In this document: positions 6,376 to 35,316 of the stretch, piece after piece
Layout of the letters: every line of letters starts with the position of its first letter
How positions within the stretch are numbered: position 1 is the first letter of the stretch
Assembly (NCBI RefSeq): GCF_964204645.1
Contig: NC_134033.1
Location: forward strand, 7,076,655 to 7,140,654
DNA length: 64,000 nt
Origin: Tubulanus polymorphus
Lineage: Eukaryota > Animalia > Nemertea
Direction: 5' to 3'
Position numbers and translations under genes: made by a program
The notes under the pieces: model-generated
What the model was told of the DNA's origin: nothing
Database searches by the model: none
Seen by the model: the letters and a program-made list of their open reading frames with translations, nothing else

Positions 6376-6404
6376 TCAAATTTTAATAAAAATATGTATT
6401 ATAA

Positions 6405-6758
6405 ATGGAGAGTAAACAAGCACACAGTGAGAACAACAAATTATTTCTAGATAGAATAAAAGATACTTCAAATGTCAAATCAGTAGATTATAAGTTTAAG
6501 AAGTTAAAAGAATTAACAATCCATAAGAAATATCTAATTACAAATATTGATACAGTTACTAACAAATATGGAGATAAATTAGTTATACACTTAGAATATG
6601 AAGGATTAAAAGGAAATACATATAAAGTCGGAACATATTTACCAGATAGATTTCATAGATTATCAAGTGAAGATTTAGAAGAATTATGTTCTGGTGATTT
6701 CTATTTCGTATACAAAGGTAAGAATGAAAAAGGGCACCATGAAATAGATTTCGAATAA
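6405..6758 (+). CDS. Small protein, possibly OB-fold ssDNA-binding; homolog of 34635-34961
   Basis: Shares KKL..KYG.K..LPD..LS.E..Y.GKNE.GHH with the B copy; function is inference. Confidence 0.55.
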   Translation: MESKQAHSENNKLFLDRIKDTSNVKSVDYKFKKLKELTIHKKYLITNIDTVTNKYGDKLVIHLEYEGLKGNTYKVGTYLPDRFHRLSSEDLEELCSGDFYFVYKGKNEKGHHEIDFE

Positions 6759-6775
6759 GAAAATATGTAAAATAA

Positions 6776-7501
6776 ATGGTAGAATTAAAAGAATACAGAA
6801 TATTTGTTGATTCTAGAAAACTTCAATTAGATAGAGAATTTAAGAATTGTGTTGATTTAAAATTAGTTAATATAAGTTTATGTAATTCTTTTCATAATAT
6901 ATCGAATAAAAGTCTCGATCATTTAGTTTTTAAAATTCATGTTAGAAATTTGAATAAATGGTTTCATCTTTATCGAAAACAAGGATTATATAATTTAGAA
7001 ACATTAGCGCAAGAAAATAATAGAAGAGCTCGTTTAAAAATGGGCGCATCTGCTAGATTTGAAATTAAATTTATCAAAAGTGATAGTTCGAATAAAATAA
7101 GAATAAAGTTAACTAATGAACAACATAGATTTCTAGTAAGAAAACCTTTAGCTAAACTGTTTGGAATTCTCCCGGATAGAGATTATTCAAGTATCGAAAC
7201 TTATACAAATTTAATGACTTTTACACATTTTTATATTTATTGCAATTTAATCAATCCTACAAAAACATTTGAAGCAACTAAAGATACAATTTGTAATTCT
7301 AGTATATCAAATATTTTACCATTAAAAAATGTCAAACAATTTGAAACTCAAATAAATTATAATTTAACTGAAAGTGATTTTAAACCTTGTATTCCACATT
7401 TCAATAATTTTAAATTAGAAATAAGAAATCATAATGGTTATTTAATTGATTTGAATAACTTTCCTGTGATATATGAATTAGTTATAAGATGTAAAGAGTA
7501 A
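6776..7501 (+). CDS. Minor capsid (penton-like) protein candidate, A
   Basis: Beta-rich; HFYIYCNLI and C-terminal LEIRNHNGYLIDLNNFPVIYELVI resemble Polinton minor capsid proteins; short N-terminal deletion versus B. Confidence 0.65.
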   Translation: MVELKEYRIFVDSRKLQLDREFKNCVDLKLVNISLCNSFHNISNKSLDHLVFKIHVRNLNKWFHLYRKQGLYNLETLAQENNRRARLKMGASARFEIKFIKSDSSNKIRIKLTNEQHRFLVRKPLAKLFGILPDRDYSSIETYTNLMTFTHFYIYCNLINPTKTFEATKDTICNSSISNILPLKNVKQFETQINYNLTESDFKPCIPHFNNFKLEIRNHNGYLIDLNNFPVIYELVIRCKE

Positions 7502-7517
7502 TTTTTTCACTATATAA

Positions 7518-7874
7518 ATGAATATAACTGTTGCGCCGAGTATATGTTTTGGGTTTGATTTTAAACATGAGAAAGAAATGAAATTTAACGTTAATGATGT
7601 AATTACACATATCAAAAATATTGCATTTTCTAATGAAACAACATTTGAGTATGAAACAACAATAGATAAAGAAACTTTAAATGTCGAAAAGATTACTAAT
7701 TTAATTAGAGAATCTTTAAGATTTTATGAATTAGATGAAGATTTTATCATCGATGATATTAAAAAAATGATAATTGAAATATATACAAATGAAACTAGTA
7801 ATGACATAAATGTTGATTTAATCATCACTAAGATAACTAAATATTTTGATGATAGTAATTTTTTTGATAAATAA
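7518..7874 (+). CDS. Conserved hypothetical protein, A
   Basis: Near-identical to 25790-26146. Confidence 0.8.
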   Translation: MNITVAPSICFGFDFKHEKEMKFNVNDVITHIKNIAFSNETTFEYETTIDKETLNVEKITNLIRESLRFYELDEDFIIDDIKKMIIEIYTNETSNDINVDLIITKITKYFDDSNFFDK

Positions 7875-8111
7875 ATGAGTGATAATAAGTGGATAATAAC
7901 TGGATTATATAATGGCGAATTACTATCAGTTGGAACTGTTGGTTATTCAATGGTATTAAAAAAAGTATTTAAAATGGGAAGTGTTAATGTTGATAGATTT
8001 GATATAACTGATATTTTAAAACGTTTATTATTTATTTTAACGTTAGCAGTTACTTTATCTAATTTAACTATTGATTATTTGGAAAAACAAAAATATATTC
8101 CTCCCATATAA
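7875..8111 (+). CDS. Small hydrophobic or membrane protein, A
   Basis: Near-identical to 26147-26368 with a 5-aa insertion. Confidence 0.75.
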   Translation: MSDNKWIITGLYNGELLSVGTVGYSMVLKKVFKMGSVNVDRFDITDILKRLLFILTLAVTLSNLTIDYLEKQKYIPPI

Positions 8112-8135
8112 ATGCGTAATTATTTTACTAAATAA

Positions 8136-8558
8136 ATGGCTTCTGCAGTTATAACTATTATAGGATCAGCAATTGTTAACGCTTTAGCATTTACTGGTGG
8201 CGGTTATTTATTCAAGCATATTGATAAAAATGGTTCATTAACAGAACAAAAAAGACATAACTTAGCATTAGAGAAATATAATAAAGCAGCAGAAGAATAT
8301 AGAGAAAAGAGGCAAAACTATATGGATTATATTAACAAGGAATTATATGATCAGAAGATTTCACATAGAGATTTTCAATCAGTTGATGATGCAATGAGTT
8401 TATATAACGCGGTAACCAATAAAGAAAAATTACATCTATACAAACCTAAATTATCAGATTATTATACCCCAAGTAAAGAACAACAGAAATATGAAATAAT
8501 TTGGATTTTAGGTGGAACAGTTATTGTTATATTTGTTGCTTATAAGTTTACTAATTAG
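8136..8558 (+). CDS. Membrane protein with N- and C-terminal hydrophobic helices, A
   Basis: Near-identical to 26393-26815. Confidence 0.8.
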   Translation: MASAVITIIGSAIVNALAFTGGGYLFKHIDKNGSLTEQKRHNLALEKYNKAAEEYREKRQNYMDYINKELYDQKISHRDFQSVDDAMSLYNAVTNKEKLHLYKPKLSDYYTPSKEQQKYEIIWILGGTVIVIFVAYKFTN

Positions 8559-8580
8559 TAATTTTTTTTTGCTAAATAAA

Positions 8581-9003
8581 TTGATGATAATATTGATATT
8601 ATTCCTCATGATATAAATAAAACTAAATTAAAAACATATTTAGAAAAACAAATATTAGAATTTGAAAGTGACAAAGATAAAAAAGAAAAAATATTTAAAA
8701 AGTAAAATTATATATTATCTTATTATTAGTGGTTCGGTTACAATTAGTTCTGTAATAACATTTCTAGCAATATTCAGTCCATTAACACCTTTAGCTATAT
8801 CAATTGGCGTACTAGGATTAAGTTCAAGTGTTTTAACCGGTATAAGTTCAAAATTGAATATAAAAAAGTAATAAAGAAAAAATTAAAACTAAAATAAAAG
8901 AAATGAATAAATTAAAGAACACACTAGATTATATAATAAGTTTAAATCGTCATATAACAGTTGAAGAACAAGATAAATTATTAAAAGAATTAATAAATTA
9001 TTA
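8581..9003 (+). pseudogene. Two-TM protein, A (start lost, frameshifted)
   Basis: Aligns with intact 26835-27269. Confidence 0.8.
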
Positions 9004-9020
9004 ATTTTTTAATTATATAA

Positions 9021-10355
9021 ATGGCAGATTGTTTTCCAAAAGCTTTCCAATATAATAAATCAATTAAATATGATATTCCAGCAATAGATTTTAATAAAGA
9101 TATTACATATAGAAATGAAGTTTTAAATTCATTAATTGATTTATATATTTATGTTACTGAAAGTAATAATTTTCTTGTAAAGATGGAAAATATATTTCAT
9201 GTGTATACAATTAATTTCAAAAATTTAAATGAGGCAAAACAATGGTTATTAAAATCTAATATGAAGTATTGGCAAAACCAATTAAATTTTGCTGTTTATT
9301 GCGCAACAACAGGATGTGGTATAAGTTGGAATGATCATTTAAACAAACCAAGTTTACCATTGATGTTATCACTTTTTAGATTTCATACTTATTTTCAAAT
9401 AAAATTAATATTAGATGAATTAGAATGTCCTTTACCAGGTTCAAAATATTTTAAAGAATTGAATAATAATATTAATTTTTCTAAGTTTTATAAAATATGT
9501 AATGAATTTAATATTAATTCAAATAAAGATTTTAGAGCATAAATTGGAACAATGGGTGGCTTAGGAATATTGTATACTAAAGAATTTGGAAAAATAATGA
9601 CAAAGTCAGATATAAGAACACTAAATTGGAATGAATTACCAAAATATTATAATAATATAAAACAACAAAACAATAATGGTTGGGTTAATTTCATTTTAGA
9701 AAATAGTGAAGGTTTTACTAAAGCTGGTATACAAAGAATAAAACAATCTATTAGAACTTATTTGATATGTATTTTAGGTGCGCAAGTTGAAACAAGATCC
9801 CCAATAATTGGAAATGATAACACTTCATTCGATGCGCAGAAACAATTCAAAGTATTATTTGAAGATTTAATTCATAATGATAAAAATAGATCGATTCCAG
9901 AAAACATTGTAAGATATCAAAATTATTTAGATAAATCACATATTAGATTAAATTATTGTATAGGCCCTAATCTATTAATTATTTCTAATGATTTAGTATT
10001 AAAGATGGGAAACATAATTGGTTACAATAATCTAATTAAAACTGCAACAATAAATAATTCATTTGGATTAAATGATATAAATAAAAAGATTATTACTGCT
10101 CCAAAATTAATGGAAGGTGAAAAAAATAAAAAACATATTCAATCAACAGAAACTAAAACTAAGAATATTAAATTAAATAATGATTCTAAAATAAAAGATT
10201 ACAATACATCAGAAAATATAAAAACTGATAATATTCAACATGATATAATTAAACTAAATGATGATAATAAATCCCATGAAAATGCTAAATTAGCTTTAAC
10301 TTGTATAGGAATTGTAATCGGAGGAATATTATATTTTAAATTTTTTATTATATAA
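9021..10355 (+). pseudogene. C-terminally anchored putative virion protein, A (nonsense at 9540-9542)
   Basis: Aligns with intact 27286-28701; AAA to TAA change. Confidence 0.85.
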
Positions 10356-11973
10356 ATGGATGAAGAAATTCCATTGGATCCTTTAGATGAACCCGGTATA
10401 AGTGATGAACAACAACCTGATTTTAGTGAAACAAGTTTTAGTAATGATAATAAAACAGAATATAATACTAATTTAGGTGAAGATGATGATTATGATGATG
10501 ATTCCGAATTACGTGAAAAATTATATAAATATTTAAAAGCTCCTGAAATTGGTAGAATTTAAACTAGAAGAGAAAGAAAAGAATTTATGGAACTATTAGT
10601 AGAACAACAAGAAAAATATCCTGATAAACATATGGAATTATATAAAATGAAATCTAGAGTAACAGATACAATTGTTTACGAATTATTACCAAAAGTTGTA
10701 ATACATGATATTGATACAGAAGGTGTTGTAGAACAAATTTTTAAAGATGACCCATATTTCACGAATAATTTAGAATTTAAAAATGATTCATGGTATTATA
10801 ATGTTAATTTAAATAACAAAATTGTATCAATTCAATTATCTAAAATGGGTCAAGAAAATATTTTTGAACCTGAAATGTTAGCAAGATCTACAATTGAACG
10901 TTCAAAAGGTGGCAAAGAATTTCTCAGAATTATATGGAATGCACTCGATAGAATAAATAAAGAAGAACCAATTCCTAATATTGATATAAACAAATATTCA
11001 CCATTTAAAAATCCATTTAAAAATCCAAATCCAAATCCTACTGATGTTGATCCAGAAACATCGAGAAGAGATATTCAACAAATTGATAATGATTCAATTA
11101 CAATTAGTATTAGAAGAACAAATTGATAGATTGAGAGATTCAGAAGAAGAGGTGAATAGTACTGGAATAAATCGAATGCAATCTTTACTAGAAAAAGGAT
11201 TACTTAATTTAACTGATGAAGAATTAGAAGCATTTCCTGAACAAATACGTAGAGAAATTAAAGGTATACAAGTATCAGCTGATGAAAATGCTAATATTAA
11301 GATGAGATTTTCTAAAATAACCATGTTAGAAAAAGAATTAGCTAATGCAGATGAAGAATTAAAACAATTAGAATTAAATAGAGATCTTATAGTAATTTAT
11401 AAAGCTGATTATGAAAGCGGAAAGTTAGCTTTAGTAAAAGAAATAGATGATTTAAAATATAATATAGAATTACAGAAAGAAGAAAGAGATACATTATTAA
11501 AATCATATGATCTTAATCACATTAAAAAATTAAAAGTTATTTTTAAAGATTTGTTGATTAAACCAAATTCTAAAATATCATTAAAAGACAGAATAAGATT
11601 ATTATTTAAGTTAGAAGGTATAACAATTCTTTCAATTCTAACATCTGTAACTATGGTATTAACAACAATTGGTTTAGCAATATCAAATGCTTTGAAATCT
11701 ACTCCTACTCCCAATAAACCGGATAAACCCCCAAATAATAATTCTATACAAGATAAAGTTAAAGATGGTTTAAAGAAATTAGCCAAATATTTATGGGAAC
11801 TATCTACAAAATCTGCTGCAGCATTGCCAGGAGTTATTGCATCAATTGTTGGTTTTATATTGAAATCTGCAGGAAACATTATTAACTTTGCTGCTGAACA
11901 TATTATTTTATTTTTAATTACAGTTGTAAGTGCAATTATTTTTGGGTTAGTAAACATGATAAAAAATAAATAA
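10356..11973 (+). pseudogene. Acidic/coiled-coil protein with C-terminal TM helices, A (disrupted)
   Basis: C-terminal ~145 aa near-identical to 28718-30253; split into three ORFs. Confidence 0.8.
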
Positions 11974-11993
11974 TTAATTTTTTTGTTAAATAA

Positions 11994-13238
11994 ATGAGTG
12001 GGAGTTATATCAATCCTTCTAAGAATCATAGAATATCTAATGCTATTAAAGCAGAAAGATCACATCATATAATTACTCATAACCCTTCTAATATTAATCC
12101 CGGTGAAACTTTATATGTTAGAATTCCGAGATTAACACAAAATACTTTTTACGTTCCAAATAGTATTTATTTATCAGCCGATATAAAAGTAATTGGTCAT
12201 GATAATAATTATGTTGTTGATAATGTTGGAAGATATTTGATTAAAAAATTAACAATAAAGTTTGGTCCAGAAACAGTTTTCTCATAAGATCATTATAATT
12301 TATTTATGCATTATAAAGATTTATGGTTAACTAAAGAAAACAGAAATAATATGATATTTCAAGGCATCCAATCAGAAAACCAAAATAAATTAAGATCAGG
12401 AGCTAATGACGCAATAGTAACTCGTACCGCAGATAATTTGATAAAAAAGATTTATGGAAGCAAATATAAAATTTCATTAGACTTTGAATTGATAAATAAT
12501 AATGCGCCTTTATATAAATACGCAATTCAAGAAGACGTTATATTCGAAATAACATTTGCTCCTGTAAATGAAATTGTATTATCTAGCGTTAATAAAGATA
12601 TGGGTTATAAATTATCGAATATATGTTTAGAATATGATACAGTTACTGATGAAAATATTTCAAGTATAATTCAAACTAAATACAATCAAGGATTTTCATT
12701 ATTATATGATTATATTGATAGATTTAAAACCGTAACTATTAATGCAAATGATGAAATTATTAATGAGAATATTAACTTCCCAAGAAGATCTATTAAAGGT
12801 ATATTAATATTTTTTACCATTGCAACATATACTAATGGCGCAATAAATGTTGATAATTATTATAATCCTGAAATAACAAAAATAGAAATAACTATCGAAG
12901 GAATAGCAAATAAAATATTTTGTCAAGGAATGAGAATGATTGATCATTGGCCAGAAATTAGAAAACATTTTATGAATGAAAAAGTGAAATCTGAAAATTG
13001 TAATATTAATCAAATTGATTATTATACCGGTAATAAATATGCATTATGGTTAGATTTTAGAACAACAGAGGATAATTCATTACATGGGTCTGGAAAAAAA
13101 TTATAGAACACTAAAGATGGAATACAATTATTCATGACAAAGAATAAAGGAATCAAAAATTTCAAAATGCACATTTATATTATATCTGACGCGCAATTAA
13201 ATATTGTAAATTCTCAATTAAATAGTGTTATGTATTAA
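11994..13238 (+). pseudogene. Major capsid protein candidate, A (two nonsense codons)
   Basis: Colinear with 30274-31521; stops at 12285-12287 (TTA to TAA) and 13104-13106 (CAG to TAG). Confidence 0.8.
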
Positions 13239-13270
13239 AATTTTAACTTAAATAAAAATATATATAATAA

Positions 13271-14002
13271 ATGGAAGGAGGTAAAGTATATAAACATATT
13301 CCATACATCGATACACATGAAAATAATGATGGTTTATATTATGTAATACCTTGTAATATAGCTTTGATATTTGATCCTATTTTCAAAATTTATAAAACTA
13401 AACTAATAGAAATCGATAATAATAAAAGTGGTGTTGTTGATAATTTAAGTAATGTAATTGATAATAATGTAATACCTTCTACATCTAATAATGTAATACC
13501 TACTACATCTAATAATGTAATACCTTCTACATCTAATAATGTAATACCTTCTACATCTAATAATGCAATAATATTAAATGTTAGTGAAAATAGAAATTAT
13601 TGTGATTATTGTAAAGGTGAATTTTCAAACGCTCCATCAAATTGGAATAAACATATGAATACAAGGGTACATATAAATAATGTTATAGAACGTGTTGGTT
13701 TAAAAGAATCTATAGAACACCCATTTAGATATGTTACAAAGTTTGTTTCAAATCAAAAAGTAAATGGTAAAGAATTATATAAAGATTTATTATTAGCAAC
13801 ACCTAATAAAGATGAATTAGATTTAACCGATGCTAATAAAATATTAGAATCAAACACTGTAAATGAAATATTAGGAGCAAACACTAATAAAGATAATAAT
13901 GAAAATGGTGCCGTATGGCACCCACATGGTGATATAGTTACAGGAAAGCGCATTGATAATAAAGATTCTATGATTCTATTCTATCAGAAAATAAAGATAT
14001 AG
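13271..14002 (+). CDS. A-specific protein with (NNVIPSTS)x4 repeat and a C2H2 finger; 3' end possibly frameshifted
   Basis: 24-bp tandem repeat ~13462-13565; CDYC-x13-H-x5-H. Confidence 0.65.
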   Translation: MEGGKVYKHIPYIDTHENNDGLYYVIPCNIALIFDPIFKIYKTKLIEIDNNKSGVVDNLSNVIDNNVIPSTSNNVIPTTSNNVIPSTSNNVIPSTSNNAIILNVSENRNYCDYCKGEFSNAPSNWNKHMNTRVHINNVIERVGLKESIEHPFRYVTKFVSNQKVNGKELYKDLLLATPNKDELDLTDANKILESNTVNEILGANTNKDNNENGAVWHPHGDIVTGKRIDNKDSMILFYQKIKI

Positions 14003-14152
14003 TTGAGATGACTAATAAGTATATCAATAAACCAATTATTTATGAAGATACGGTAGAGCATTTGAATAAATTGTTAGGGTCTGATGATGAATTGGAGAGT
14101 GATGATGAAAGTGATTCAGAAAGTAATTATCTAACACTCAAAAAGTAATAAA

Positions 14153-14500
14153 GGTTGAAAATTGGATAAAATAATAGTAAATAAAAAAGGGGGTTTTAAG
14201 TATTAAGGTACCTAATACGTATTTAATACATATCTAATACATATCTAATACGTTTTATTTGAAAATACCTTAAATTGTATTTCTTTTTTAAATTTATATT
14301 GAAACCTCAGTAATAATAAATAACCTTTATTATTTTCAAACTTATTCATATATTAGTTGAAAAAATAAAAATAAATTGGTTGAAAATTGTATAAATAATA
14401 TTTATTTTTAAAAAGGGGGTTTTAAGTAATTAAGGTATCTAATAGGGTATCAGGTATTAGGGTATCTAATATGGTATCTAATAGGGTATCTAATACATAG
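14153..14500. repeat. Duplicated non-coding cassette followed by short GGTATCTAATA-type repeats
   Basis: GGTTGAAAATTG...AAAAGGGGGTTTTAAGTA.TAAGGTA.CTAATA at ~14153-14218 and ~14378-14444, each followed by degenerate 11-12-mers. Confidence 0.75.
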
Positions 14501-14624
14501 GTATATTTTAAACATATTTCAATATTTATATTTGTATTTTATTGAAATAATTCATATATATTCATGAATAACATATAAATGAATAACTTCTAAAATCAAT
14601 TTAGTAAAAAAATATGTATAATAA

Positions 14625-15308
14625 ATGGAACCAGAACAACCACAAACTATAAATATTACAAATAATACTGGTGTCATAAACATATACTACAAGAAGTGTT
14701 CTAAATGTGAATTAGATAAATTAGCTTTAACAGAATTTAGTAAGCGTAAGATTAGCAAAGATGGTTTTCAATATTGCTGTAAAACTTGTACTAAACTATA
14801 TACCAAACAATATCGAGAGGATAATATAGAACATTATAATTATTATATGGCAGAATATATGAGAGAAAGATATAAAACAGATCTTAATTTTAGATTGAAA
14901 CAATGCTTAAGATCTAGATTAACACAATTATTCAACAAAGAAACACATTCAGAAACACTATCTAATTTATTGGGTTGTGAATTTTGTGGTAATGAATTTT
15001 TCATATCATGGATAATATATCAATTCGATGATAAAATGAATATAGATAATTATGGTGAATACTTTCATATTGATCATGTGTTGCCGATTTCTAAATTTGA
15101 CATGAATGATGAATACAATAAGAAGCTAATATGGAGCTGGAAAAATTTAAGACCTTTAGAAAAGAAGGAAAATATAATTAAATCTAATAAACTAGATATA
15201 CAGTTATATTTAGATCAACTGGATAAAGCAAAGACATTTGTTGAATTATGGAACTCAACACATAATGAAAAATACGTTGAGGAATTTGATATCAAGGATC
15301 CGAAATGA
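14625..15308 (+). CDS. HNH endonuclease of the type common in large DNA viruses (A-specific)
   Basis: N-terminal CxxC...KDG...CKxC; NYG..FHIDHVLP...NLRPL...N..KSNK. Confidence 0.8.
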   Translation: MEPEQPQTINITNNTGVINIYYKKCSKCELDKLALTEFSKRKISKDGFQYCCKTCTKLYTKQYREDNIEHYNYYMAEYMRERYKTDLNFRLKQCLRSRLTQLFNKETHSETLSNLLGCEFCGNEFFISWIIYQFDDKMNIDNYGEYFHIDHVLPISKFDMNDEYNKKLIWSWKNLRPLEKKENIIKSNKLDIQLYLDQLDKAKTFVELWNSTHNEKYVEEFDIKDPK

Positions 15309-15366
15309 CTTATCTGGACAGTTATAATTACTGCTCCTAATAGATAAACAAAAGTAGTGAGATATC
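15288..15366 (+). other. Conserved putative structured RNA/DNA element, copy in A
   Basis: Homologous to 34530-34604 on the minus strand, with compensatory stem changes. Confidence 0.55.
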
Positions 15367-26146: not shown

Positions 26147-26368
26147 ATGAGTGATAATAAGTGGATAATAACTGGATTATATAATGGAGCATTACTATCA
26201 GTTGGAACTGTTGGTTATTCAATGGTATTAAAAAAAGTATTCAAAATGGGAAGTGTTAATGTTGATAGATTTGATATCAATGATATTTTAAAGTTAACGT
26301 TAGCAGTTACTTTATCTAATTTAACTATTGATTATTTGGAAAAACAAAAATATATTCCTCCCATATAA
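26147..26368 (+). CDS. Small hydrophobic or membrane protein, B
   Basis: ORF with a homolog in A; two hydrophobic stretches. Confidence 0.78.
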   Translation: MSDNKWIITGLYNGALLSVGTVGYSMVLKKVFKMGSVNVDRFDINDILKLTLAVTLSNLTIDYLEKQKYIPPI

Positions 26369-26392
26369 ATGCATAATTTTTTTGCTAAATAA

Positions 26393-26815: not shown

Positions 26816-26834
26816 TAATTTTTATTCTAAATAA

Positions 26835-27269
26835 ATGGAAGATAAAGTTGATAGTATTGATATTATTCCTCATGATATAAATAAAACTAAATTAAAAACA
26901 TATTTAGAAAAACAAATATTAGAATTTGAAAGTGACTTAAAGATAAAAAAGAAAAAATATCTAAAAAGTAAAATTATATATTATCTTATTATTAGTGGTT
27001 CGGTTACAATTAGTTCTGTAATAACATTTCTAGCAATATTCAGTCCATTAACACCTTTAGCTATATCAATTGGTGTGTTAGGATTAAGTTCAAGTGTTTT
27101 AACTGGTATAAGTTCAAAATTAAATATAAAAAGTAATAAAGAAAAAATGAAAACTAATATAAAAGAAATTAATAAATTAAAGAACACACTAGATTATATA
27201 ATAAGTTTAAATGGTCATATAACAGTTGAAGAACAAGATAAATTATTAAAAGAATTAATAAATTATTAA
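26835..27269 (+). CDS. Two-TM protein, B
   Basis: Central hydrophobic hairpin flanked by basic helices. Confidence 0.8.
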   Translation: MEDKVDSIDIIPHDINKTKLKTYLEKQILEFESDLKIKKKKYLKSKIIYYLIISGSVTISSVITFLAIFSPLTPLAISIGVLGLSSSVLTGISSKLNIKSNKEKMKTNIKEINKLKNTLDYIISLNGHITVEEQDKLLKELINY

Positions 27270-27285
27270 TTTTTTAATTATATAA

Positions 27286-28701
27286 ATGGCAGATAGTTTT
27301 CCAAAAGCTTTCCAATACAATAAATCAATTAAATATAATATTCCAGCAATAGATTTTAATAAAGATATTACATATAGAAATGAAGTTTTAGATTCATTAA
27401 CTAATTTAGAAATTTATGTTACTGAAACTAATAATTTTAATGCAAAGATGGAAAATATATTTCATGTATATTTAATTAATTTTAAAAAATTGAAAGATGA
27501 AAAACAATGGTTATTAAAATCTAATATGAAGTATTGGCAGAATCAATTAAATTTTGCTGTTTATTGTGCAACAACAGGATGTGGAATTAGTTGGAATGAT
27601 CATTTGAATAATTCTAAATATAAACTAATTCAAAGTTTATTTAGATTTCATACATACTTTCAAATCAGAATAATATTAAATGAATTAGAGTGCGCTTTAC
27701 CAGGATCTAGATATTTTAAAGAATTAGATAATAATATTAATTTATCTAAGTTTTATAAAATTTGTAATGAATTTAATATAGATATAAATAATTCTGATTT
27801 TAGAACAAAAATTGGAACAATAAGATCACTTCCTTGCCCTAGAAAGATTGCAGAATATTGTGCACTTCCCATACCATCTAATAGTTTTTATAATATCTAT
27901 AATAAAAAATTAGGTTATGGTAAAATAGAAACAAACGATTTAGAAACATTAAATTTCAATAAATTACCGAAATTTTATGATCATTTAAAACAAGAAAACA
28001 ATAATGGTTGGGTTTATTTTATTTTAGAAAATAGTGAAGGTTTTACTAAATCAGGTATAGAAAGAATAAATCAATCTATTAGAACTTATTTGATTTGTAT
28101 TCTAGGATCACAAGTTGAAACAAGATCCCCAATAATTGGAAATTTAAATACATCATTTGATACACAAAAACAATTTAAAGTTTTATTTGAAGATTCAATT
28201 CATAATGATAAAAATAGATCGATTCCAGAAAACATTATAAGATATCAAAATTATTTAGATAAATCTCATGTAAGACTTAATTATTGTATAGGCCCTAATC
28301 TATTAATTATTTCTAATGATTTAGTATTAAAGATGGGAAATATAATTGGTTATAATAATCTAATTAAAACTGCAACAATAAATAATTCATTTGGATTGAA
28401 TGATATAAATAAAAAGATTATTACTGCTCCAAAATTAATGGAAGGTGAAAAAAATAAAAAACACATTCAATCAACTGAAACTAAAACTAAGAATATTAAA
28501 TTAAATAATGATTCTAAAATAAAAGATTATAATACATCAGAAAATAATAGAACTGATAATGGTGCCATATGGCACCCACACGGTGATATTCAACATGATG
28601 TAATTAAACTAAATGATGATAATAAATTCCATGAAAATACTAAATTAGCTATAACTTGTATAGGAATTGTTATAGGAGGAATATTATATTTTAAATTTTA
28701 A
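27286..28701 (+). CDS. C-terminally anchored putative virion protein, B
   Basis: 471-aa ORF, QNQLNFAVYCATTGCGIS motif, C-terminal TM; homolog in A. Confidence 0.8.
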   Translation: MADSFPKAFQYNKSIKYNIPAIDFNKDITYRNEVLDSLTNLEIYVTETNNFNAKMENIFHVYLINFKKLKDEKQWLLKSNMKYWQNQLNFAVYCATTGCGISWNDHLNNSKYKLIQSLFRFHTYFQIRIILNELECALPGSRYFKELDNNINLSKFYKICNEFNIDINNSDFRTKIGTIRSLPCPRKIAEYCALPIPSNSFYNIYNKKLGYGKIETNDLETLNFNKLPKFYDHLKQENNNGWVYFILENSEGFTKSGIERINQSIRTYLICILGSQVETRSPIIGNLNTSFDTQKQFKVLFEDSIHNDKNRSIPENIIRYQNYLDKSHVRLNYCIGPNLLIISNDLVLKMGNIIGYNNLIKTATINNSFGLNDINKKIITAPKLMEGEKNKKHIQSTETKTKNIKLNNDSKIKDYNTSENNRTDNGAIWHPHGDIQHDVIKLNDDNKFHENTKLAITCIGIVIGGILYFKF

Positions 28702-28717
28702 TTTTTTTATTATATAA

Positions 28718-30253
28718 ATGGATGTAGAAGGTGTAGAAGATATTGGAATGGATCCTTTTGATGAACCTGGTATAACTGATGAACAACCACCTGATTTTGA
28801 TGAAACAAGTTTTAATGATGGTAATGAACCAGAATATAACAATAATTTAAATATGCCTGATTATATTAAAAATGCTGAATCACAATTAAATCCTGAAAAT
28901 TTAGACCCAGATTTAGTAAAACAAGATTTAGATAATTTAAACAAAATACCTAAATTAGAAGATTTAATTGAAAAATCTAATTTTAACATAAATGATGAAG
29001 ACGTTGGACTTTTAGCAGATCAATTAAAATTTTTAGATAATGGTAAATGTTATTATCGTTTGAAAGGTGATTATTATATTGATATCACTTATAAAAATAA
29101 TAAAAATAAAATATTATCAGAATCAACTTTAGAAAAATTAAAACCAGATAGAATTAAAATAATAAGTAATAGTAATGAAATAACTGATGTTACACAAAAA
29201 GAAATAGATGATAATATAGATGTATTTAAACAAAGAATTAATGAATTATTTGAAATAATCAAAAAGAAATCAGAAACAGAAATGGAAGAGAATAGAGATA
29301 AATTAAGATCTTCAACACCCGAAACATCGAGAAGAGACACTCAACAAATTGATAATGATTTAAGTCAATCACAATTAGAAAAACGTTTAGATAACTTACT
29401 GAATAAAACTTCCAAAACTAGTAAACTTAAATCAAATAAAGTTCTAATTGAAAAACTTTTACCGAATGGATTACTTGATGCAACAGATCAAGAATTAGAA
29501 GATTTAGATATATTTTCTGATAAAGCAATTAGAGAAATTATTAGTATAAGACTTGCATCTGATAAAATTGCGCATAATAAAAGTATAAGAGATCAAAAAA
29601 TTACGTATTTGGAAAAAGAATTAACTGATAAAAATAAAGAAATAGAACAACTAAAGTCTGATTTAGATCATCAAGTAATTGATGAAATAGAATATAGGCA
29701 AAAAGAATTACGTTTAGAAAAAGAAATTAGTAATTTAAAAGATAATTTAGAAGTACAGAAAGAAGAAATTAAATTATTGTTAAAATCATATGATTATAAT
29801 ATTAATAGATTAAAAGTTATTTTTAAAGATTTGTTGATTAAACCAAATTCTGACATATCACTAAAAGATAGAATAAGATTATTATTTAAATTAGAAGGAA
29901 TAACAATTCTTTCAATTCTAACATCTGTAACTATGTTATTTACAACAATTGGTTTAGCTATATCAAATGCTTTGAAATCTACTCCTACTCCCAATAAACC
30001 AGATAAACCTCCAGGAAATAATTCTATACAAGATAAAGTTAAGGATGGTTTAAAGAAATTAGCAAAATATTTATGGGAACTATCTAAAAAATCTGCTGCA
30101 GCTTTACCAGGAGTTATTGCTTCAATTGTTGGTTTTATATTGAAATCTGCAGGAAACATTATTAACTTTGCTGCTGAACATATTATTTTATTTTTAATTA
30201 CAGTTGTAAGTGCTATTATTTTTGGGTTAGTGAATATGATTAAAAATAAATAA
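28718..30253 (+). CDS. Acidic/coiled-coil protein with C-terminal TM helices, B
   Basis: 511-aa ORF with heptad-rich middle and 2-3 hydrophobic helices. Confidence 0.8.
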   Translation: MDVEGVEDIGMDPFDEPGITDEQPPDFDETSFNDGNEPEYNNNLNMPDYIKNAESQLNPENLDPDLVKQDLDNLNKIPKLEDLIEKSNFNINDEDVGLLADQLKFLDNGKCYYRLKGDYYIDITYKNNKNKILSESTLEKLKPDRIKIISNSNEITDVTQKEIDDNIDVFKQRINELFEIIKKKSETEMEENRDKLRSSTPETSRRDTQQIDNDLSQSQLEKRLDNLLNKTSKTSKLKSNKVLIEKLLPNGLLDATDQELEDLDIFSDKAIREIISIRLASDKIAHNKSIRDQKITYLEKELTDKNKEIEQLKSDLDHQVIDEIEYRQKELRLEKEISNLKDNLEVQKEEIKLLLKSYDYNINRLKVIFKDLLIKPNSDISLKDRIRLLFKLEGITILSILTSVTMLFTTIGLAISNALKSTPTPNKPDKPPGNNSIQDKVKDGLKKLAKYLWELSKKSAAALPGVIASIVGFILKSAGNIINFAAEHIILFLITVVSAIIFGLVNMIKNK

Positions 30254-30273
30254 TTAATTTTTTTGTTTAATAA

Positions 30274-31521
30274 ATGAGTGGGAGTTATATAAGTCCTTCT
30301 AAGATTTCTAGAATATCTAATGCTATTAAAGCAGAAAGATCACATCATATAATTACTCATAACCCTTCAAATATTAATCCTGATGAAACTTTATATGTTA
30401 GAATCCCTCAATTAACACAAAATACTTTTTATGTTCCAAACAGTATTTATTTATCAGCTGATATAAAAGTAATCGGTAATAATAATAATTATGTCGTTGA
30501 TAATGTTGGAAGATATTTGATTAAAAAGTTAACAATAAAGATTGGTCCAGAAACAGTTTTCTCATTAGATGATTATAATTTATTTATGCATTATAAAGAT
30601 TTATGGTTAACTAAAGAAAATAGAAATAATATGATATTTCAAGGCATCCAATCAGAAAACCAAAATAAATTAAGATCAGAAGCTAATAACGCAATATTAA
30701 CAAATGATGTAGATAAATTGATAAAAAGTATATATGGAAGCAAATATAAAATTCCATTAGACTTTGAATTGATAAATAATAATGCACCTTTATATAAATA
30801 CGCAATTCAAGAAGATATTATATTTGAGATAACATTTGCTCCTGTAAATGAAATTGTATTATCTAGCGTTGTTAAAGATATGAGTTATAAATTATCGAAT
30901 ATATGTTTAGAATATGATACAGTAACTGATGAAAATATTGCTAGCACAATTCAAACTCAATACAATCAAGGATTTTCATTATTATATGATTATATTGATA
31001 AATTTAAAACTGTAACTATTAATGCAAATGATGAAATAATAAATGAGAATATTAACTTCCCAAGAAGATCTATTAAAGGTATATTAATATTTTTTACCAT
31101 TGGAACGTATACTAATGGTGCAATAAATGTTGATAATTATTATAATCCTGAAATAACAAAAGTAGAAATAACTATCGAAGGAATAGCAAATAAAATATTT
31201 TGTCAAGGAATGAGAATGATAGATCAATGGGTAGAAATTAAAAAACATTTTATGAATGAAAAAGTAAAATCATTTGAAAATTGTAACATTAATCAAATTG
31301 ATTATTATACCGGTAATAAATATGCATTATGGTTAGATTTTAGAACAACTGAAGATAATTCATTACATGGTTCTGGAAAAAAACTACAGAACACTAAAGA
31401 TGGAATACAATTATTTATGAAAAAGAAAAAGGGAATCAAAAATTTTAAAATGCATATTTATATTATATCTGATGCGCAATTAAATATTATAAATTCACAA
31501 TTAGATAGTATTCAATATTAG
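30274..31521 (+). CDS. Major capsid protein candidate (double jelly-roll expected), B
   Basis: 415 aa, beta-rich, highly conserved between A and B, size and position as expected; fold not verified. Confidence 0.75.
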   Translation: MSGSYISPSKISRISNAIKAERSHHIITHNPSNINPDETLYVRIPQLTQNTFYVPNSIYLSADIKVIGNNNNYVVDNVGRYLIKKLTIKIGPETVFSLDDYNLFMHYKDLWLTKENRNNMIFQGIQSENQNKLRSEANNAILTNDVDKLIKSIYGSKYKIPLDFELINNNAPLYKYAIQEDIIFEITFAPVNEIVLSSVVKDMSYKLSNICLEYDTVTDENIASTIQTQYNQGFSLLYDYIDKFKTVTINANDEIINENINFPRRSIKGILIFFTIGTYTNGAINVDNYYNPEITKVEITIEGIANKIFCQGMRMIDQWVEIKKHFMNEKVKSFENCNINQIDYYTGNKYALWLDFRTTEDNSLHGSGKKLQNTKDGIQLFMKKKKGIKNFKMHIYIISDAQLNIINSQLDSIQY

Positions 31522-31551
31522 AAATATAAAGTTAAAATTAAGGATATATAA

Positions 31552-32679
31552 ATGGGAGGTAAAAAAACCCCTAATACTAAAGAACAATATTTAAGAAATT
31601 TATATTACAACCCTGAGAGTTCGGTTGCTTATTCTTCTACTAAAAATATATGGCGTAAAGTAAAACAAGATAAATTAGATAAGATAATCCCACAAAATTT
31701 AGTTAAATATAAAGATATAAATGAATTTATGTTAGAACAACCAACGTATACAACACATAAAAAAATTGTTAGAAAATATAAAACTCGTAAAACTATGGTA
31801 AGTTATGTAGATCAACAGTGGCAAGGAGATTTAATTGATATGAAAAATCTTAAAAAAGATAATAATGATTATTGGTGGATATTGAATATAATTGATATTT
31901 TTAGTCGTTATGTATGGAGTTTCCCACTTTATAGAAAAGATGCTGCACAAACATCACATGTTTTAAGAAAATTTCTTTCAGGTGGTAAACTAAAACCAGA
32001 AAAAATTCAATTTGATGATGGAAAAGAGTTTGATAATTCATTTGTTCATGAACTCTTAGATAATCATAATATTAAATATTTTTCAACAAAATCGGATAAA
32101 AAAGCAGCAGTTGTTGAACGATTTAATAGAACATTAAGAACAAGAATGTGGAAATATTTTACAGCAAATAATACTTTTAAATGGATTGATGTTTTACCAA
32201 AATTGATAGAAGGATATAATAATTCTTATCATTCTTCTATTGGAATGAAACCTATTGATGCTAGAAAATCTGAAAATGCTGAAATTGTTTGGAATAATTT
32301 ATATGGAGCATTTCTTATAGATGATTTTGGTGAACCTAAATTTAAAGTTGGTCAAAATGTTAGAATTTCTAAGTATAAAAAGATATTTGATAAAGGATAC
32401 GATCGAAATTTTACTAGAGAAATATATAAAATAAAAAAGGTAATAACAACAAAACCATATGTCTATAAATTAGAAGATTTAGATGGTGAAGAAGTTGATG
32501 GATATTTTTACGAAGAAGAATTAAGTTTAACTACTGAAAATCTAGAACAAGAATATAAAATTGAAAAAGTATTAAAAACAAAAACTGTTAAAAGAAAAAA
32601 ATATTCTTTAGTAAAATGGGTTGGATGGCCAGATAAATTCAATGAATGGATATTATCAAGTAAAATTAAAAATATATAA
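31552..32679 (+). CDS. rve integrase with C-terminal chromodomain, B
   Basis: WQGDLID, IQFDDGKEF, VVERFNRT; YKIEKVLK...LVKWVGWPDKFNEWI. Confidence 0.95.
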   Translation: MGGKKTPNTKEQYLRNLYYNPESSVAYSSTKNIWRKVKQDKLDKIIPQNLVKYKDINEFMLEQPTYTTHKKIVRKYKTRKTMVSYVDQQWQGDLIDMKNLKKDNNDYWWILNIIDIFSRYVWSFPLYRKDAAQTSHVLRKFLSGGKLKPEKIQFDDGKEFDNSFVHELLDNHNIKYFSTKSDKKAAVVERFNRTLRTRMWKYFTANNTFKWIDVLPKLIEGYNNSYHSSIGMKPIDARKSENAEIVWNNLYGAFLIDDFGEPKFKVGQNVRISKYKKIFDKGYDRNFTREIYKIKKVITTKPYVYKLEDLDGEEVDGYFYEEELSLTTENLEQEYKIEKVLKTKTVKRKKYSLVKWVGWPDKFNEWILSSKIKNI

Positions 32680-33288
32680 ATGAATAAGGAATTATTCATA
32701 TTTGAGCCTCATAATATGTTAATTTCTGGTGTAACAAATTGTGGAAAAACTTATTTTATATTACATTTATTATAAACTGTTTATGAAAACTATTTTGATA
32801 ATATAGTATTATTTTGTCCAACATATGAATTTAATCAAACTTATGATAAAAATATTACTAGGAATAATAAATTTATTATATTAGATCCTAAAACAGTAAA
32901 AGAAAATTTAGATAATTGTATAAAAATAGCAATTGATATTTATAAAGGATCAAATACATTATTTATCATAGATGATTGTGCTAATCTACATGATTCAAAA
33001 GTTAGAGAAAGTGAGTTATGTTATTTGGCTTTCTCTGGGAGACATTTTGGGATAACAACTTGGGTTTTAAATCAGAAATATAATTCAATTGTGAAAGATT
33101 TTAGAGAAAACATTAGATTTCTAGTTTTATTCTACAATAAAGATAGAAAATCGATGAAAAATGCACTTGAGGAAAATGATATTATTCCACATGATTTACA
33201 TAATGAATATATGGATAAGTTGAAAAATATTAAAAGATCAAAATTACTATTTAGATTACAACACCCATTTAAATATGAATTTATTTAA
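32680..33288 (+). pseudogene. A32/FtsK-HerA-type packaging ATPase, B (nonsense at 32773-32775)
   Basis: GVTNCGKT Walker A, FIIDD Walker B, SGRH. Confidence 0.9.
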
Positions 33289-33289
33289 A

Positions 33290-33562
33290 TTCAACTGGCT
33301 TGTTAATCTAGTTGAATTCTAGTTATTGGTAGTTGAATTCTAGTTATTAGTAGTTGTAACAAAAATCAAATAGATTTAACAATATTTTAACTAGCTTGTT
33401 AATCTATTTTAATTCTAGTTACATTCTAGTTGAATTCTAGTTGTGAGTAGTTGAAACAAAAATCAACTAGATTTAACAAGAAATAAACAAAAACACTAAT
33501 ATTTCAACTAGCTTGTTAATCTAGTTGAATTCTAGTTACATTCTAGTTAAATTCTAGTTGCA
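33290..33562. repeat. Array of CTAGTT(GAATT) motifs in about three higher-order units
   Basis: AACT(A/G)GCTTGTTAATCTA three times; TAGTT more than ten times. Confidence 0.8.
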
Positions 33563-33593
33563 ACATCACACAATTAATTTTTTTGTTATATAA

Positions 33594-34184
33594 ATGGTAG
33601 GTGAAAAGAAAAGAAAATCTAAAAATGGTGATGTTCCAATTGAAAAAACTTTAGATGATTTAGGAATAACAGAAACAAAATTAACTCCAGATGATGGTGT
33701 TTTAAATAATGTTACAACAAATAATAATTATGAATATTATCTTTATTGCAAACATCAATTAGAAATATTAATAGCATCTGGAAAATGTAAAAATTTTGTC
33801 AGTAAAAATTTAACTTATAATGAATTAGACACAATGAAATCAGATGAAATTATTAGATTATTTAAGATTTATGAAGCCGCGAGAACAGCTAGAATTAATG
33901 ACGCGATATCAGAAAATGTAGTAAAAGGTTATAGTAAATTATGTAATTATATACTACCAATTGAAGATGAAAATAGATTATATTCCGATTTAAAAAATGA
34001 TTATTTAGTTATGACTGAATTAAATAAATGGATTGGATATTTATCATTTCAATTAGGTGGATTTATGACATTATTATCAACTGGAGTTATAACATTTTCA
34101 AATATTGAAAGTAAAAATATTTCTATAATAAATGAGCGAGGTGAAAGAAGTGAAGAAAAAATCGAGATCTCAGAAACAAATTGA
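33594..34184 (+). CDS. Conserved protein with a C-terminal hydrophobic segment, B
   Basis: 196-aa ORF; homolog in A. Confidence 0.8.
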   Translation: MVGEKKRKSKNGDVPIEKTLDDLGITETKLTPDDGVLNNVTTNNNYEYYLYCKHQLEILIASGKCKNFVSKNLTYNELDTMKSDEIIRLFKIYEAARTARINDAISENVVKGYSKLCNYILPIEDENRLYSDLKNDYLVMTELNKWIGYLSFQLGGFMTLLSTGVITFSNIESKNISIINERGERSEEKIEISETN

Positions 34185-34485
34185 ATGGTCTCGGCAATTA
34201 GGAATTAAATCACAAGAATATAAAAAAGCTGTAAAAGAAAAAATAAGTAATAAAAATGTTAACAAAAATGGTGAAAATATTATTATTTCTACTCCTTCTG
34301 ATAGTAGAATATTTGATAAATATTTATATTTTACAGTTGGATTTGTAATTGTATTCATTTTGATTGGGTGTAATTGGTATAAGAAATCAAATAAAATTCA
34401 TGATATTAGTAATTCTGAAACAACTGCTATTAAAAATGAAAATACTTCTGAAATTCCAAAATTAACAATAAAAAAAATGGATTAA
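34132..34485 (+). CDS. Basic single-TM protein, B
   Basis: Homolog of 16217-16585. Confidence 0.75.
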   Translation: MSEVKEVKKKSRSQKQIEWSRQLGIKSQEYKKAVKEKISNKNVNKNGENIIISTPSDSRIFDKYLYFTVGFVIVFILIGCNWYKKSNKIHDISNSETTAIKNENTSEIPKLTIKKMD

Positions 34486-34529
34486 TATTTTAGAAAAAAG
34501 CAAAAAAAATAATTTTTTTTAATTAATTG

Positions 34530-34604
34530 AATATCTCACTACTTTTGTCTATCTATGAGGAGCAATTAAATTGTCCAGATAAGTCATTTCGGATTCTAGA
34601 TATT
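34530..34604 (-). other. Conserved putative structured element, copy in B
   Basis: Homolog of 15288-15366. Confidence 0.55.
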
Positions 34605-34634
34605 CATTATTTTTATTAATTTATTTTTTTAAAT

Positions 34635-34961
34635 TTAATCAACAATTTCTAAATCATGATGGCCATCTTCATTTTTTCCATGATAGATTATTTTAAATCC
34701 TTCTAAATCTTTTGATTCCTCTGTACTCAATGAAACCCATTTATCAGGTAAAAATACTTTAAATTCTCGCGATGTACTAACATTGCAGTAGCTTAAATTA
34801 GCTGATACTTTCTCTCCATATTTAGTTTTTATCTTTTCTAATTTCAATATTTTATGTTCAATTTCTTTTGTAACATCAACTAACTTTTTTATTTCAAATT
34901 GTTTTTTTGCTGGTTTTATTCTGTTATTTATTGTTGCTAAGAATGCTTTTCTATCTCCCAT
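34635..34961 (-). CDS. Small protein, possibly OB-fold ssDNA-binding, B
   Basis: Homolog of 6405-6758. Confidence 0.55.
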   Translation of the reverse strand: MGDRKAFLATINNRIKPAKKQFEIKKLVDVTKEIEHKILKLEKIKTKYGEKVSANLSYCNVSTSREFKVFLPDKWVSLSTEESKDLEGFKIIYHGKNEDGHHDLEIVD

Positions 34962-34994
34962 TTATTAGGAAAAAAAATTACTTGTGGTGATGAG
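34959..34994 (-). promoter_or_regulatory. 36-bp leader, copy 3 (SSB-like gene)
   Basis: Exact copy of 18521-18556. Confidence 0.8.
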
Positions 34995-35027
34995 TGATTA
35001 CTTCCCCTATATATAACAAACACGTTA

Positions 35028-35231
35028 TTACGCGCACTCACTGTTTATATGTGACACAATTTTACTACGTAATATTTCTAAAATTTCAATTGTATCTTTT
35101 ATTTCTAGTGAATCAATATAATTTCTAACATTTCCCATGTAAGGTTTATCAATGTATTTTTTACAATATTGACAATAATATTGATTTTTATTGACATCAC
35201 TTTTTTCTGTTTGGAACTCACTGTCTCCCAT
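35028..35231 (-). CDS. Short, internally deleted copy of the pPolB N-terminus in the right end of B
   Basis: pPolB aa ~1-28 joined to aa ~126-155. Confidence 0.6.
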   Translation of the reverse strand: MGDSEFQTEKSDVNKNQYYCQYCKKYIDKPYMGNVRNYIDSLEIKDTIEILEILRSKIVSHINSECA

Positions 35232-35316
35232 TTATTAGGGGAAAAAATTACTTGTGGTGATGAGCGGTGTCTCGTCCTCTCGTCCTCTGATCTGAAAACG
35301 CCATCTTCTAATTACT
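35147..35316. repeat. Right TIR of element B
   Basis: Reverse complement of 18469-~18640. Confidence 0.9.

Follow-up and report, generated by a model that had tools for sequence, protein, structure and literature searches.

We analysed a window of 64,000 nucleotides (nt) from the nemertean Tubulanus polymorphus (assembly GCF_964204645.1, contig NC_134033.1, positions 7,076,655 to 7,140,654 of the forward strand), in which a Polinton/Maverick element carries the same short motif at the start of nearly all of its genes. All coordinates given here are those of the window. The element lies in an AT-rich block (1740-35557) with a G+C content of 21-26% (76% A+T), against 34-50% in the flanks, where few long open reading frames (ORFs) are present. 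The block is a composite of two related copies arranged head to tail, which are 72-96% identical depending on the region. Copy A is degraded: its family B polymerase (PolB) gene is split in two (2671-5139 and 5329-6375), as is its capsid gene (starts at 11994 and 12306), the integrase is truncated (16592-17284), and the ATPase (17636-18208) has lost its start and also the Walker A lysine. Copy B is largely intact. In an independent whole-genome sequencing run of the same species, 33,813 reads align to 24900-34590, of which 1,703 are at least 99% identical to the window, 15,909 are 95-99% identical and 16,201 are 90-95% identical, with a depth of 72-1036 per bin. Because most reads fall between 90 and 99% identity, the family is multi-copy and diverged in its host. 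Many reads depart from the window sequence at about 24908-24975, and other copies therefore have different neighbours at that junction.

Judged from its sequence, the element is a Polinton/Maverick provirus and not a poxvirus, as it combines PolB, an rve integrase, an A32-like packaging ATPase and a double-jelly-roll major capsid protein (MCP) with terminal inverted repeats and a 6-bp target-site duplication (Table 1). The PolB match to PF03175 reaches 49.8 bits (cut-off 25.8), the integrase match to PF00665 scores 38.7 bits in copy B and 35.6 bits in copy A (cut-off 32.6), and the ATPase matches PF04665 with an E-value of 3.3e-8. The MCP model matches the capsid proteins of iridovirus, PBCV-1 and mavirus (Foldseek, E down to 2.4e-17), and 929 of 3723 candidate proteins are MCP relatives at E <=1e-3. 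No relatives were found in IMG/VR, using either the capsid protein, the capsid alignment or the alignment of the VLTF3-like protein described below. Regarding an adenain-type maturation protease, the Pfam and PHROGs scans of the ORFs returned no protease family; no more sensitive profile or fold search of the unassigned ORFs was made.

The motif was identified at the first ATG of the genes. Taking as candidate starts those of all ORFs of at least 60 amino acids (aa) in 2671-35231, there are 37 starts (34 on the plus and three on the minus strand), and 26 of them read TAAATG. A preliminary description of this DNA had given about 26 of 30; the numerator was recovered on recounting, and the denominator of 30 excludes the ORF fragments of broken genes that are included in our 37. 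Among the 11 starts lacking TAAATG (2671, 5329, 9552, 10587, 11044, 12306, 16024, 16592, 17636, 21800 and 24976), all except 24976, which reads TAAATAATG, belong either to broken genes, as downstream fragments or truncated copies of them, or to the second half of the PolB frame, which is split and carries an intein. At 19 of the 26 TAAATG starts the upstream layout is constant, with TAA at -19 to -17, a T-run at -16 to -11 (6-9 nt in length), seven variable T/A-rich nucleotides and then TAAATG. The other seven have no T-run, and most of them carry an A-run (AAAAATATGTA-like) at an equal distance; adding the ATPase start at 32680, recovered as described below, gives eight starts without a T-run, mostly with an A-run. 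With 32680 included, TAAATG is found at 15 of the 16 starts of copy B, 24976 being the sixteenth. Overall, there are about 17 gene families, each with the motif in at least one copy, and the gaps between genes are only 16-20 nt long and are filled by the motif. A scan of both strands of the whole window for a T-run of at least four, a spacer of 3-9 nt and TAAATG retrieved 33 sites, among them exactly the 19 starts for which the preliminary description had named a T-run; the remaining 14 head ORFs of 15 aa or less. Its further statement that the T-run at 7875 and 26147 lies within the preceding gene also holds, as the run is there encoded by Phe-Phe codons (...NFFDK stop).

The enrichment was compared with other ATGs and with composition-matched simulations. 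TAA precedes the first ATG in 23 of 34 plus-strand ORFs of at least 60 aa, compared with 46 of 775 other ATGs of the block on the plus strand (5.9%) and 27 of 526 on the minus strand (5.1%). The pattern T5+ N4-8 TAAATG occurs 18 times, whereas 300 first-order Markov simulations gave 2.3 +/- 1.6 (maximum 9). As had been asked at the outset, the motif is thus enriched over both kinds of background and does not reflect AT richness. By itself, the word TAAATG is not over-represented in the window (123 occurrences, with 104 +/- 10 expected); the signal resides in position and upstream context. The ORF-calling rule is not the cause of the effect, since the chance of finding TAA before a first ATG equals the base rate of about 6% and distant relatives, called in the same way, show none. 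Because of the identity between the two copies, about half of the starts are paralogous and not independent. Within the coding sense strands of 22 genes (6405-34961), TTTTTNT is depleted three-fold (10 occurrences against 28 +/- 6 by codon shuffling, with none of 500 shuffles as low), but bare TAAATG is not depleted, which fits a signal that needs both parts. TTTTTNT is the early termination signal of poxviruses and is avoided inside their early genes. Here 13 of 27 starts have it in the 26 nt that precede them, and a dual role as terminator and promoter is possible.

Relatives of the element were represented by 80 metagenome loci from a scan with the capsid alignment, all partial contigs of 1-14 kb. 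The MCP gene opens with TAAATG in all 13 loci whose MCP is at least 52% identical (G+C content 0.20-0.44), and in 0 of the 37 loci whose MCP identity is 44% or less, four of which have a G+C content of 0.26-0.30. Counted over the ORFs of at least 70 aa in the 13 close loci, after dropping those wholly within a longer ORF and those less than 32 nt from a contig end, TAAATG stands at 51 of 62 starts, compared with 84 of 2072 ATGs elsewhere (Fisher p 8e-55); in the close loci with a G+C content of at least 0.30 the figures are 21 of 25 starts and 30 of 973 other ATGs. In the profile of the 51 starts, positions -18, -17, -6 and -4 show A, and positions -14 to -12 show T (48 of 51 at -12). Training on the relatives alone gave a matrix spanning -22 to -4, with which the 123 TAAATG sites of the window were scored. 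Ranks 1 to 20 are all ORF starts, and rank 21 is 32680, the start of the interrupted ATPase, which is absent from the ORF list because of a single in-frame stop at codon 32. The motif is therefore a clade-specific, position-specific signal that is conserved regardless of G+C content. An exact motif scan of IMG/VR gave 16 single matches, some of them in five giant-virus bins and at the two ends of a 222.8-kb record; all 16 were set aside as chance matches in AT-rich viruses, as none has TAAATG at most of its ORF starts (highest 6 of 13).

The two promoter classes tend to follow the gene. The ATPase and the genes resembling those at 13271 and 34132 have the A-run in most relatives examined, the genes resembling those at 33594 and 26147 have the T-run in every relative examined, and the MCP gene has it in nine of 13. 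Poxvirus intermediate promoters have an A-rich core and a TAAA initiator, which the A-run class recalls. In two of the loci, L010 (about 646-675 and 2017-2046) and L011 (788-819), outward-facing TAAATG starts lie about 31 bp apart and have one A/T tract in common, which reads as a T-run for one gene and as an A-run for the other. A 36-nt cassette, formed by CTCATCACCACAAG and the T-run motif, is common to the four starts 18554, 24918, 34961 and 35231, and a partial copy faces 24976; it may be a separate regulatory class or a movable promoter.

Copy B also encodes a homologue of VLTF3 (vaccinia A2L), a 433-aa protein whose own gene starts at a T-run motif. A direct Pfam scan of the protein returned zinc-finger matches only, with PF04947 not reached even at E <=10. 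The assignment follows from the agreement of BLASTP, profile-profile, hidden Markov model (HMM) and fold matches. Searching 1.84 billion representatives with phmmer gave 28 proteins at E <=0.001, including the longer P0241 and P0242, and P0258 (226 aa, E 1.6e-4), which has PF04947 VLTF3 at 1.3e-24 and an A2L zinc ribbon. In BLASTP alignments, residues 205-433 match P0258 end to end (28% identity, E 2e-12), and likewise the VLTF-3 of Choristoneura rosaceana entomopoxvirus (25% over 197 aa, E 2e-9). In hhalign, a profile built without the Pfam-labelled members matches the entomopoxvirus-type VLTF-3 with a probability of 96.6% and an E-value of 4.8e-10; conversely, an HMM of entomopoxvirus-type VLTF-3 finds the ORF among all six-frame ORFs of the window and the 80 loci (E 8.5e-7). 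The four cysteines of the N-terminal zinc ribbon (C-x2-C...C-x2-C) are invariant in alignments A2 and A3. For the AlphaFold model (pLDDT 76), the top BFVD match by Foldseek is the cowpox VLTF-3 (E 3.5e-7), and the next matches are VLTF3s of entomopoxviruses, a pandoravirus, a mimivirus-like virus and a marseillevirus. A profile search that included P0258 reached three named entomopoxvirus VLTF-3 proteins at E about 1e-32, a result that is driven by P0258 and is therefore not counted separately. Judged by bit scores alone, the protein is closest to entomopoxvirus-type members (42-50 bits), against 29-33 bits for two VLTF3s from giant-virus bins and none for a third (L100). The two that align do so at E 3e-5 and 5e-4, and the entomopoxvirus-only HMM reached none of the three. 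The VLTF3-like alignment had no match among prokaryote genome contigs.

In regard to its function, the motif heads genes that have no upstream neighbour on the same strand, namely PolB at the terminal repeat, both members of the divergent pair 24918(-)/24976(+), and genes of L010 and L011; since it heads first genes and both members of the pair, it is a start signal and not an end signal. Probably it is a transcription-start signal of the poxvirus late type. As reviewed in PMC5294985, a vaccinia late promoter has a core of about 20 bp that contains T residues, then a spacer of about 5-7 bp and a TAAAT whose next base is G or A, and there is no 5' untranslated region (UTR). The preliminary description had equated the motif with this architecture, and the claim stands in part. 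The layout agrees, with TAAAT plus G placed over the start codon, an upstream T core, a spacer (here of 7 nt) and, as predicted, no templated 5' UTR, and so does the presence of a VLTF-3 homologue. In contrast, the T core has 6-9 nt, there is a parallel A-run class, and the motif is found in a 17-kb Polinton in which Pfam detected no RNA polymerase, VLTF-1 or VLTF-2. Nearly all genes, the polymerase gene included, use the motif here, whereas in a control stretch of an entomopoxvirus TAAATG stands at 6 of 17 ORFs.

We propose that each gene would have one promoter of this type, in which a tract of T or A at about -16 to -11 is followed, after a spacer of 7 nt, by TAAATG, and that transcription would begin in the AAA just before the ATG. 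An initiator placed over the ATG would need a polymerase that supplies a leader by slippage. In poxvirus late genes, transcription begins in the AAA, the mRNAs bear untemplated 5' poly(A) heads, and the viral RNA polymerase acts together with VLTF-1, -2 and -3. The VLTF3-like protein of copy B is the likely specificity factor. In the Pfam scans of the ORFs no polymerase domain was found, the largest unassigned ORFs (471 and 511 aa) included. The RNA polymerase would most likely come from a co-infecting pox-like or asfar-like giant virus, and less likely be host RNA polymerase II (Pol II). Points in favour of a helper are the G+C content, which is as low as in entomopoxviruses (17.7% in the control stretch) and differs from that of the flanks, the higher VLTF3 scores against entomopoxvirus-type members, and the precedents of virophages and of Polinton-like viruses in entomopoxvirus occlusion bodies given below. 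If the polymerase is that of a giant virus, the element would be provirophage-like. The complete chain of late-type promoters, VLTF3-like factor and helper-virus polymerase is put forward tentatively, as a proposal with slightly less than an even chance of being right. Taken one step further, the copies could be provirophages of an undiscovered pox-like or asfar-like giant virus of a marine invertebrate, with all genes on the late promoter of the helper and the VLTF3 of the helper captured; they would be silent in the germline until infection and then hijack late transcription, as an animal counterpart of mavirus in Cafeteria. We regard this last scenario as possible but rather doubtful.

Several observations weigh against the proposed chain. 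No helper virus sequence was seen in this analysis, and we know of no pox-like virus of a marine invertebrate. In the entomopoxvirus control a T-run precedes only one of the six TAAATG starts; the element is more stereotyped than this control, and its T-run bears no obvious likeness to entomopoxvirus promoters. The higher scores against entomopoxvirus VLTF-3 may partly stem from a common AT-rich amino-acid composition, and the fold match is not fully independent, as the alignment behind the structure model included one true VLTF3 (P0258). Copy A lacks the VLTF3-like gene and none was found among the 80 partial loci, which leaves this window as the basis for linking VLTF3 with the motif clade; beyond it there is one hint, a longest contig of 12,994 bases reported both for a VLTF3-like protein and for an MCP of 54% identity. 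The chromodomain integrase, the 6-bp target duplication and the multi-copy state in the host genome argue that the element enters the nucleus, as is assumed for autonomous Mavericks.

The alternative that survives best is an autonomous element, in which the VLTF3-like factor would recruit host Pol II to the TAAATG elements in the nucleus without any helper; the T-run and the A-run would then mark two classes of genes, regulatory or temporal, in a single small virus of the nucleus. Its integrase, target duplication and multiple copies speak for residence in the nucleus. Some of the more distant MCP relatives are on Mb-sized contigs, and the bivalve Mactra antiquata is the named source of one (39% identity), a typical finding for animal Maverick-Polintons. 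The VLTF3 fold is also present in viruses without their own RNA polymerase, such as a phaeovirus (rank 8 among the structure matches), which we take to lack one, and the promoter class is partly conserved by gene family. A VLTF3 is moreover reported for a polintovirus subgroup in the accessible text of PMC11131425. This alternative is nevertheless the less likely one in our view. An initiator that overlaps the ATG leaves no 5' UTR; VLTF3, PolB and structural genes are all on one promoter type, with nothing visible to start a cascade; and the element is much poorer in G+C than its flanks. In metazoans, Pol II initiates some 30 nt downstream of a TATA-like box, and transcription from such a box would therefore begin inside the ORF, with loss of the conserved N-terminus. 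A TATA box at -30 was rejected on the same grounds.

It is a good deal less probable that the motif is no promoter at all but a signal on polycistronic or read-through RNA, acting as a translation context, in UAAAUG termination-reinitiation, as a splice acceptor or as a poly(A) signal of the upstream gene. The tiny intergenic gaps, the true TAA-ATG stop-start junctions at four starts (7875, 10356, 26147 and 32680), the G that follows the ATG in 37 of the 51 TAAATG starts of the relatives, and AATAAA in about half of the motif sites would be compatible with such roles, but the other half of the sites read TATAAATG and have no AATAAA. The number of junctions agrees with the few simple ones noted earlier; at 23 of the 27 TAAATG starts (the 26 and 32680) the TAA is not the stop of the upstream gene. 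The motif is also found at terminal and divergent genes that have no upstream gene on the same strand, and the near-invariant T at -12 with an AT tract at a fixed distance corresponds to no known feature of translation starts. Two of these roles were rejected individually: a canonical splice acceptor, as every site of the T-run class is free of AG from the T-run to the ATG, and an upstream poly(A) signal, given the sites lacking AATAAA and the genes lacking an upstream neighbour. Finally, an artefact of AT richness, of the ORF-calling rule or of the duplicated copies, for which the 76% A+T, the ordinary frequency of the bare word and the paralogous pairs might be adduced, has a negligible probability in view of the background of about 6% at other ATGs, the 0 of 37 in distant relatives, AT-rich ones included, the retention of the motif by relatives at 36-44% G+C and the recovery of the window starts by a matrix trained on relatives.

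Several known systems besides the poxviruses can be compared with the present element. The cytoplasmic linear plasmids of yeasts (pGKL type) are AT-rich and have a protein-primed PolB, pox-like transcription and untemplated 5' poly(A) leaders. The AT richness and the protein-primed PolB are features of the present element too, but the plasmids have their own RNA polymerase and capping enzyme, a different upstream motif and no capsid or integrase, and are cytoplasmic. Virophages and provirophages (Sputnik, mavirus, EMALE type 4 in Cafeteria) are similar in being small, with an rve integrase, a double-jelly-roll capsid and one short motif on all or most genes. The available part of PMC10945749 describes that virophages carry the late-promoter motif of their giant virus, that integrated copies are silent until the helper infects, and that only EMALEs with the CroV motif were reactivated by CroV. 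Unlike these, the present element has a metazoan-looking host flank, a motif that is pox-like and not that of CroV, no known helper and a VLTF3 of its own.

Polinton-like viruses (PLVs) have also been recovered from the occlusion bodies of entomopoxviruses (Barth et al. 2024, PMC11296320). They are small Preplasmiviricota tied to invertebrate poxviruses, some with PolB, and one relative is integrated in a beetle genome. They differ in having about 12 kb and an adenain-type protease, with no rve integrase detected in those bearing PolB, and their capsids have almost no database relatives, compared with the 929 for the capsid described here. The main text of PMC11296320 makes no mention of promoter, TAAAT, VLTF or transcription. 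As in copy B, a VLTF3 homologue is encoded by a polintovirus subgroup in stony corals, for which gene exchange with giant viruses was suggested (PMC11131425), and by some PLV groups (preprint 10.64898/2026.06.19.733378), as far as the available texts of both go. In these texts the word promoter is absent and VLTF3 paired with a pox-late-like motif on each gene is not described.

In open-access PMC and bioRxiv, no report of a pox-late-like motif in Polintons, PLVs or virophages was found. Pox late promoters, promoter mimicry by virophages, VLTF3 in some polintoviruses and poxvirus-associated PLVs were each already known; what is new is the pairing of the motif with a VLTF3 factor in a Polinton clade of animal genomes. 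Animal Mavericks/Polintons are usually treated as autonomous nuclear viruses or transposons, and their mode of transcription is essentially undescribed. The genes of this clade leave no room for a conventional promoter or 5' UTR and have an initiator-over-ATG design instead. If the late-type reading is true, pox-type late transcription may exist outside the giant viruses, which bears on the proposed lineage from Polintons to giant viruses; alternatively, animals may carry provirophage-like elements aimed at pox-like viruses, which would bear on antiviral defence and on finding unknown giant viruses of invertebrates by their promoter signatures. In practical terms, the 25-nt matrix is a tool for annotation, and it found a gene start that ORF calling had missed.

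Table 1. Features of the composite element and its gene-start motifs (window coordinates)
Feature	Position	Strand	Remark
Left target-site duplication, 6 bp, CGAAGG	1734..1739		read directly
Outer terminal inverted repeat, left arm	1740..1975	+	99% complementary to 35317-35557
Copy A, degraded	2671..18208	+	
A-run motif (AAAAATATGTA..TAAATG), start 6405	6383..6407	+	
A-run motif, start 6776	6754..6778	+	
T-run motif, start 7518	7496..7520	+	
T-run motif, start 7875	7853..7877	+	run in last codons of previous gene
T-run motif, start 8136	8114..8138	+	
T-run motif, start 9021	8999..9023	+	
T-run motif, start 10356	10334..10358	+	
T-run motif, start 11994	11972..11996	+	capsid gene, copy A
A-run motif, start 13271	13249..13273	+	
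A-run motif, start 14625	14603..14627	+	
HNH/endonuclease VII ORF	14625..15308	+	copy A only; PHROGs
T-run motif, start 15621	15599..15623	+	
A-run motif, start 16217	16195..16219	+	
Copy B, largely intact	18298..35557	+	
T-run motif with upstream CTCATCACCACAAG cassette, start 18554	18521..18556	+	PolB
Protein-primed family B polymerase (pPolB) with intein, copy B	18554..23620	+	PF03175 E 3.2e-13; PF14890, PF14528
433-aa zinc-finger protein, residues 205-433 VLTF3-like domain	23617..24918	-	A2L-type zinc ribbon and helical domain
CTCATCACCACAAG cassette with T-run motif, start 24918	24916..24951	-	VLTF3-like gene
Variant, T-run then TAAATAATG, start 24976	24953..24978	+	divergent partner of 24918
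Putative minor capsid (penton) protein	24976..25773	+	lead only; Atlas hits to viral clusters
T-run motif, start 25790	25768..25792	+	
T-run motif, start 26147	26125..26149	+	
T-run motif, start 26393	26371..26395	+	
T-run motif, start 26835	26813..26837	+	
T-run motif, start 27286	27264..27288	+	
T-run motif, start 28718	28696..28720	+	
T-run motif, start 30274	30252..30276	+	capsid gene
Double-jelly-roll major capsid protein (MCP), 415 aa	30274..31521	+	structure model, pLDDT 86
A-run motif (weak), start 31552	31530..31554	+	integrase
rve integrase with C-terminal chromodomain	31552..32679	+	PF00665 E 1.2e-9; PF00385 below its cut-off
A-run motif, start 32680	32658..32682	+	ATPase
A32-like packaging ATPase, copy B	32680..33297	+	end approximate; one in-frame stop at codon 32
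T-run motif, start 33594	33572..33596	+	
A-run motif, start 34132	34110..34134	+	
CTCATCACCACAAG cassette with T-run motif, start 34961	34959..34994	-	108-aa gene
CTCATCACCACAAG cassette with T-run motif, start 35231	35229..35264	-	copy of PolB start inside right terminal repeat
Outer terminal inverted repeat, right arm	35317..35557	-	pairs with left arm 1740-1975
Right target-site duplication, 6 bp, CGAAGG	35558..35563		read directly

Some further features of the element were observed. The left end (1739-2201) is a palindrome centred near 1938, and the sequence of 1970-2201 recurs in reverse complement at 18237-18468, where copies A and B meet; the composite could be the product of two copies joined by their ends, or of one copy inserted into the terminal repeat of another. 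The intein of the copy B PolB (about 22100-23210, in 21800-23620) has a splicing domain and a LAGLIDADG homing endonuclease and is inserted inside the YxDTDS polymerase motif, which is uninterrupted in copy A (5329-6375). An Endonuclease_7-like domain lies within the N-terminal part of PolB in both copies (2671-5139 in A, 25.8 bits; 19601-21721 in B, 16.3 bits). Among the unassigned ORFs, the PHROGs scan gave no match besides endonuclease VII/HNH at 14625-15308. One of the Atlas viral clusters hit by the product of 24976-25773 has the Sputnik V18/19 family in 26% of its members, and the 471-aa protein had no usable Atlas match.

Three unrelated ORFs have an in-frame, GC-rich insertion of about 27 nt (near 28573, 13919 and 16712), which is absent from their paralogous copies. 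It contains the perfect palindrome GGTGCC-ATAT-GGCACC (or GTAT/GTAC in the centre), encodes GA(V/I)(W/R)HPHGD, and resembles a small palindromic GC cluster that is mobile within an AT-rich genome. Inside the 243-aa ORF, positions 13438-13581 hold five to six tandem 24-nt repeats encoding NNVIP(S/T)TS units. In the host flank (37354-38672 and 45701-49675) there is a cluster of inverted repeats of about 47 nt, together with a Ty3/gypsy retroelement in several frames. The best named relatives of this right-flank element (reverse transcriptase, RNase H and integrase) are from arachnids, Haliotis, Patiria and Mytilus, with 41-50% identity.

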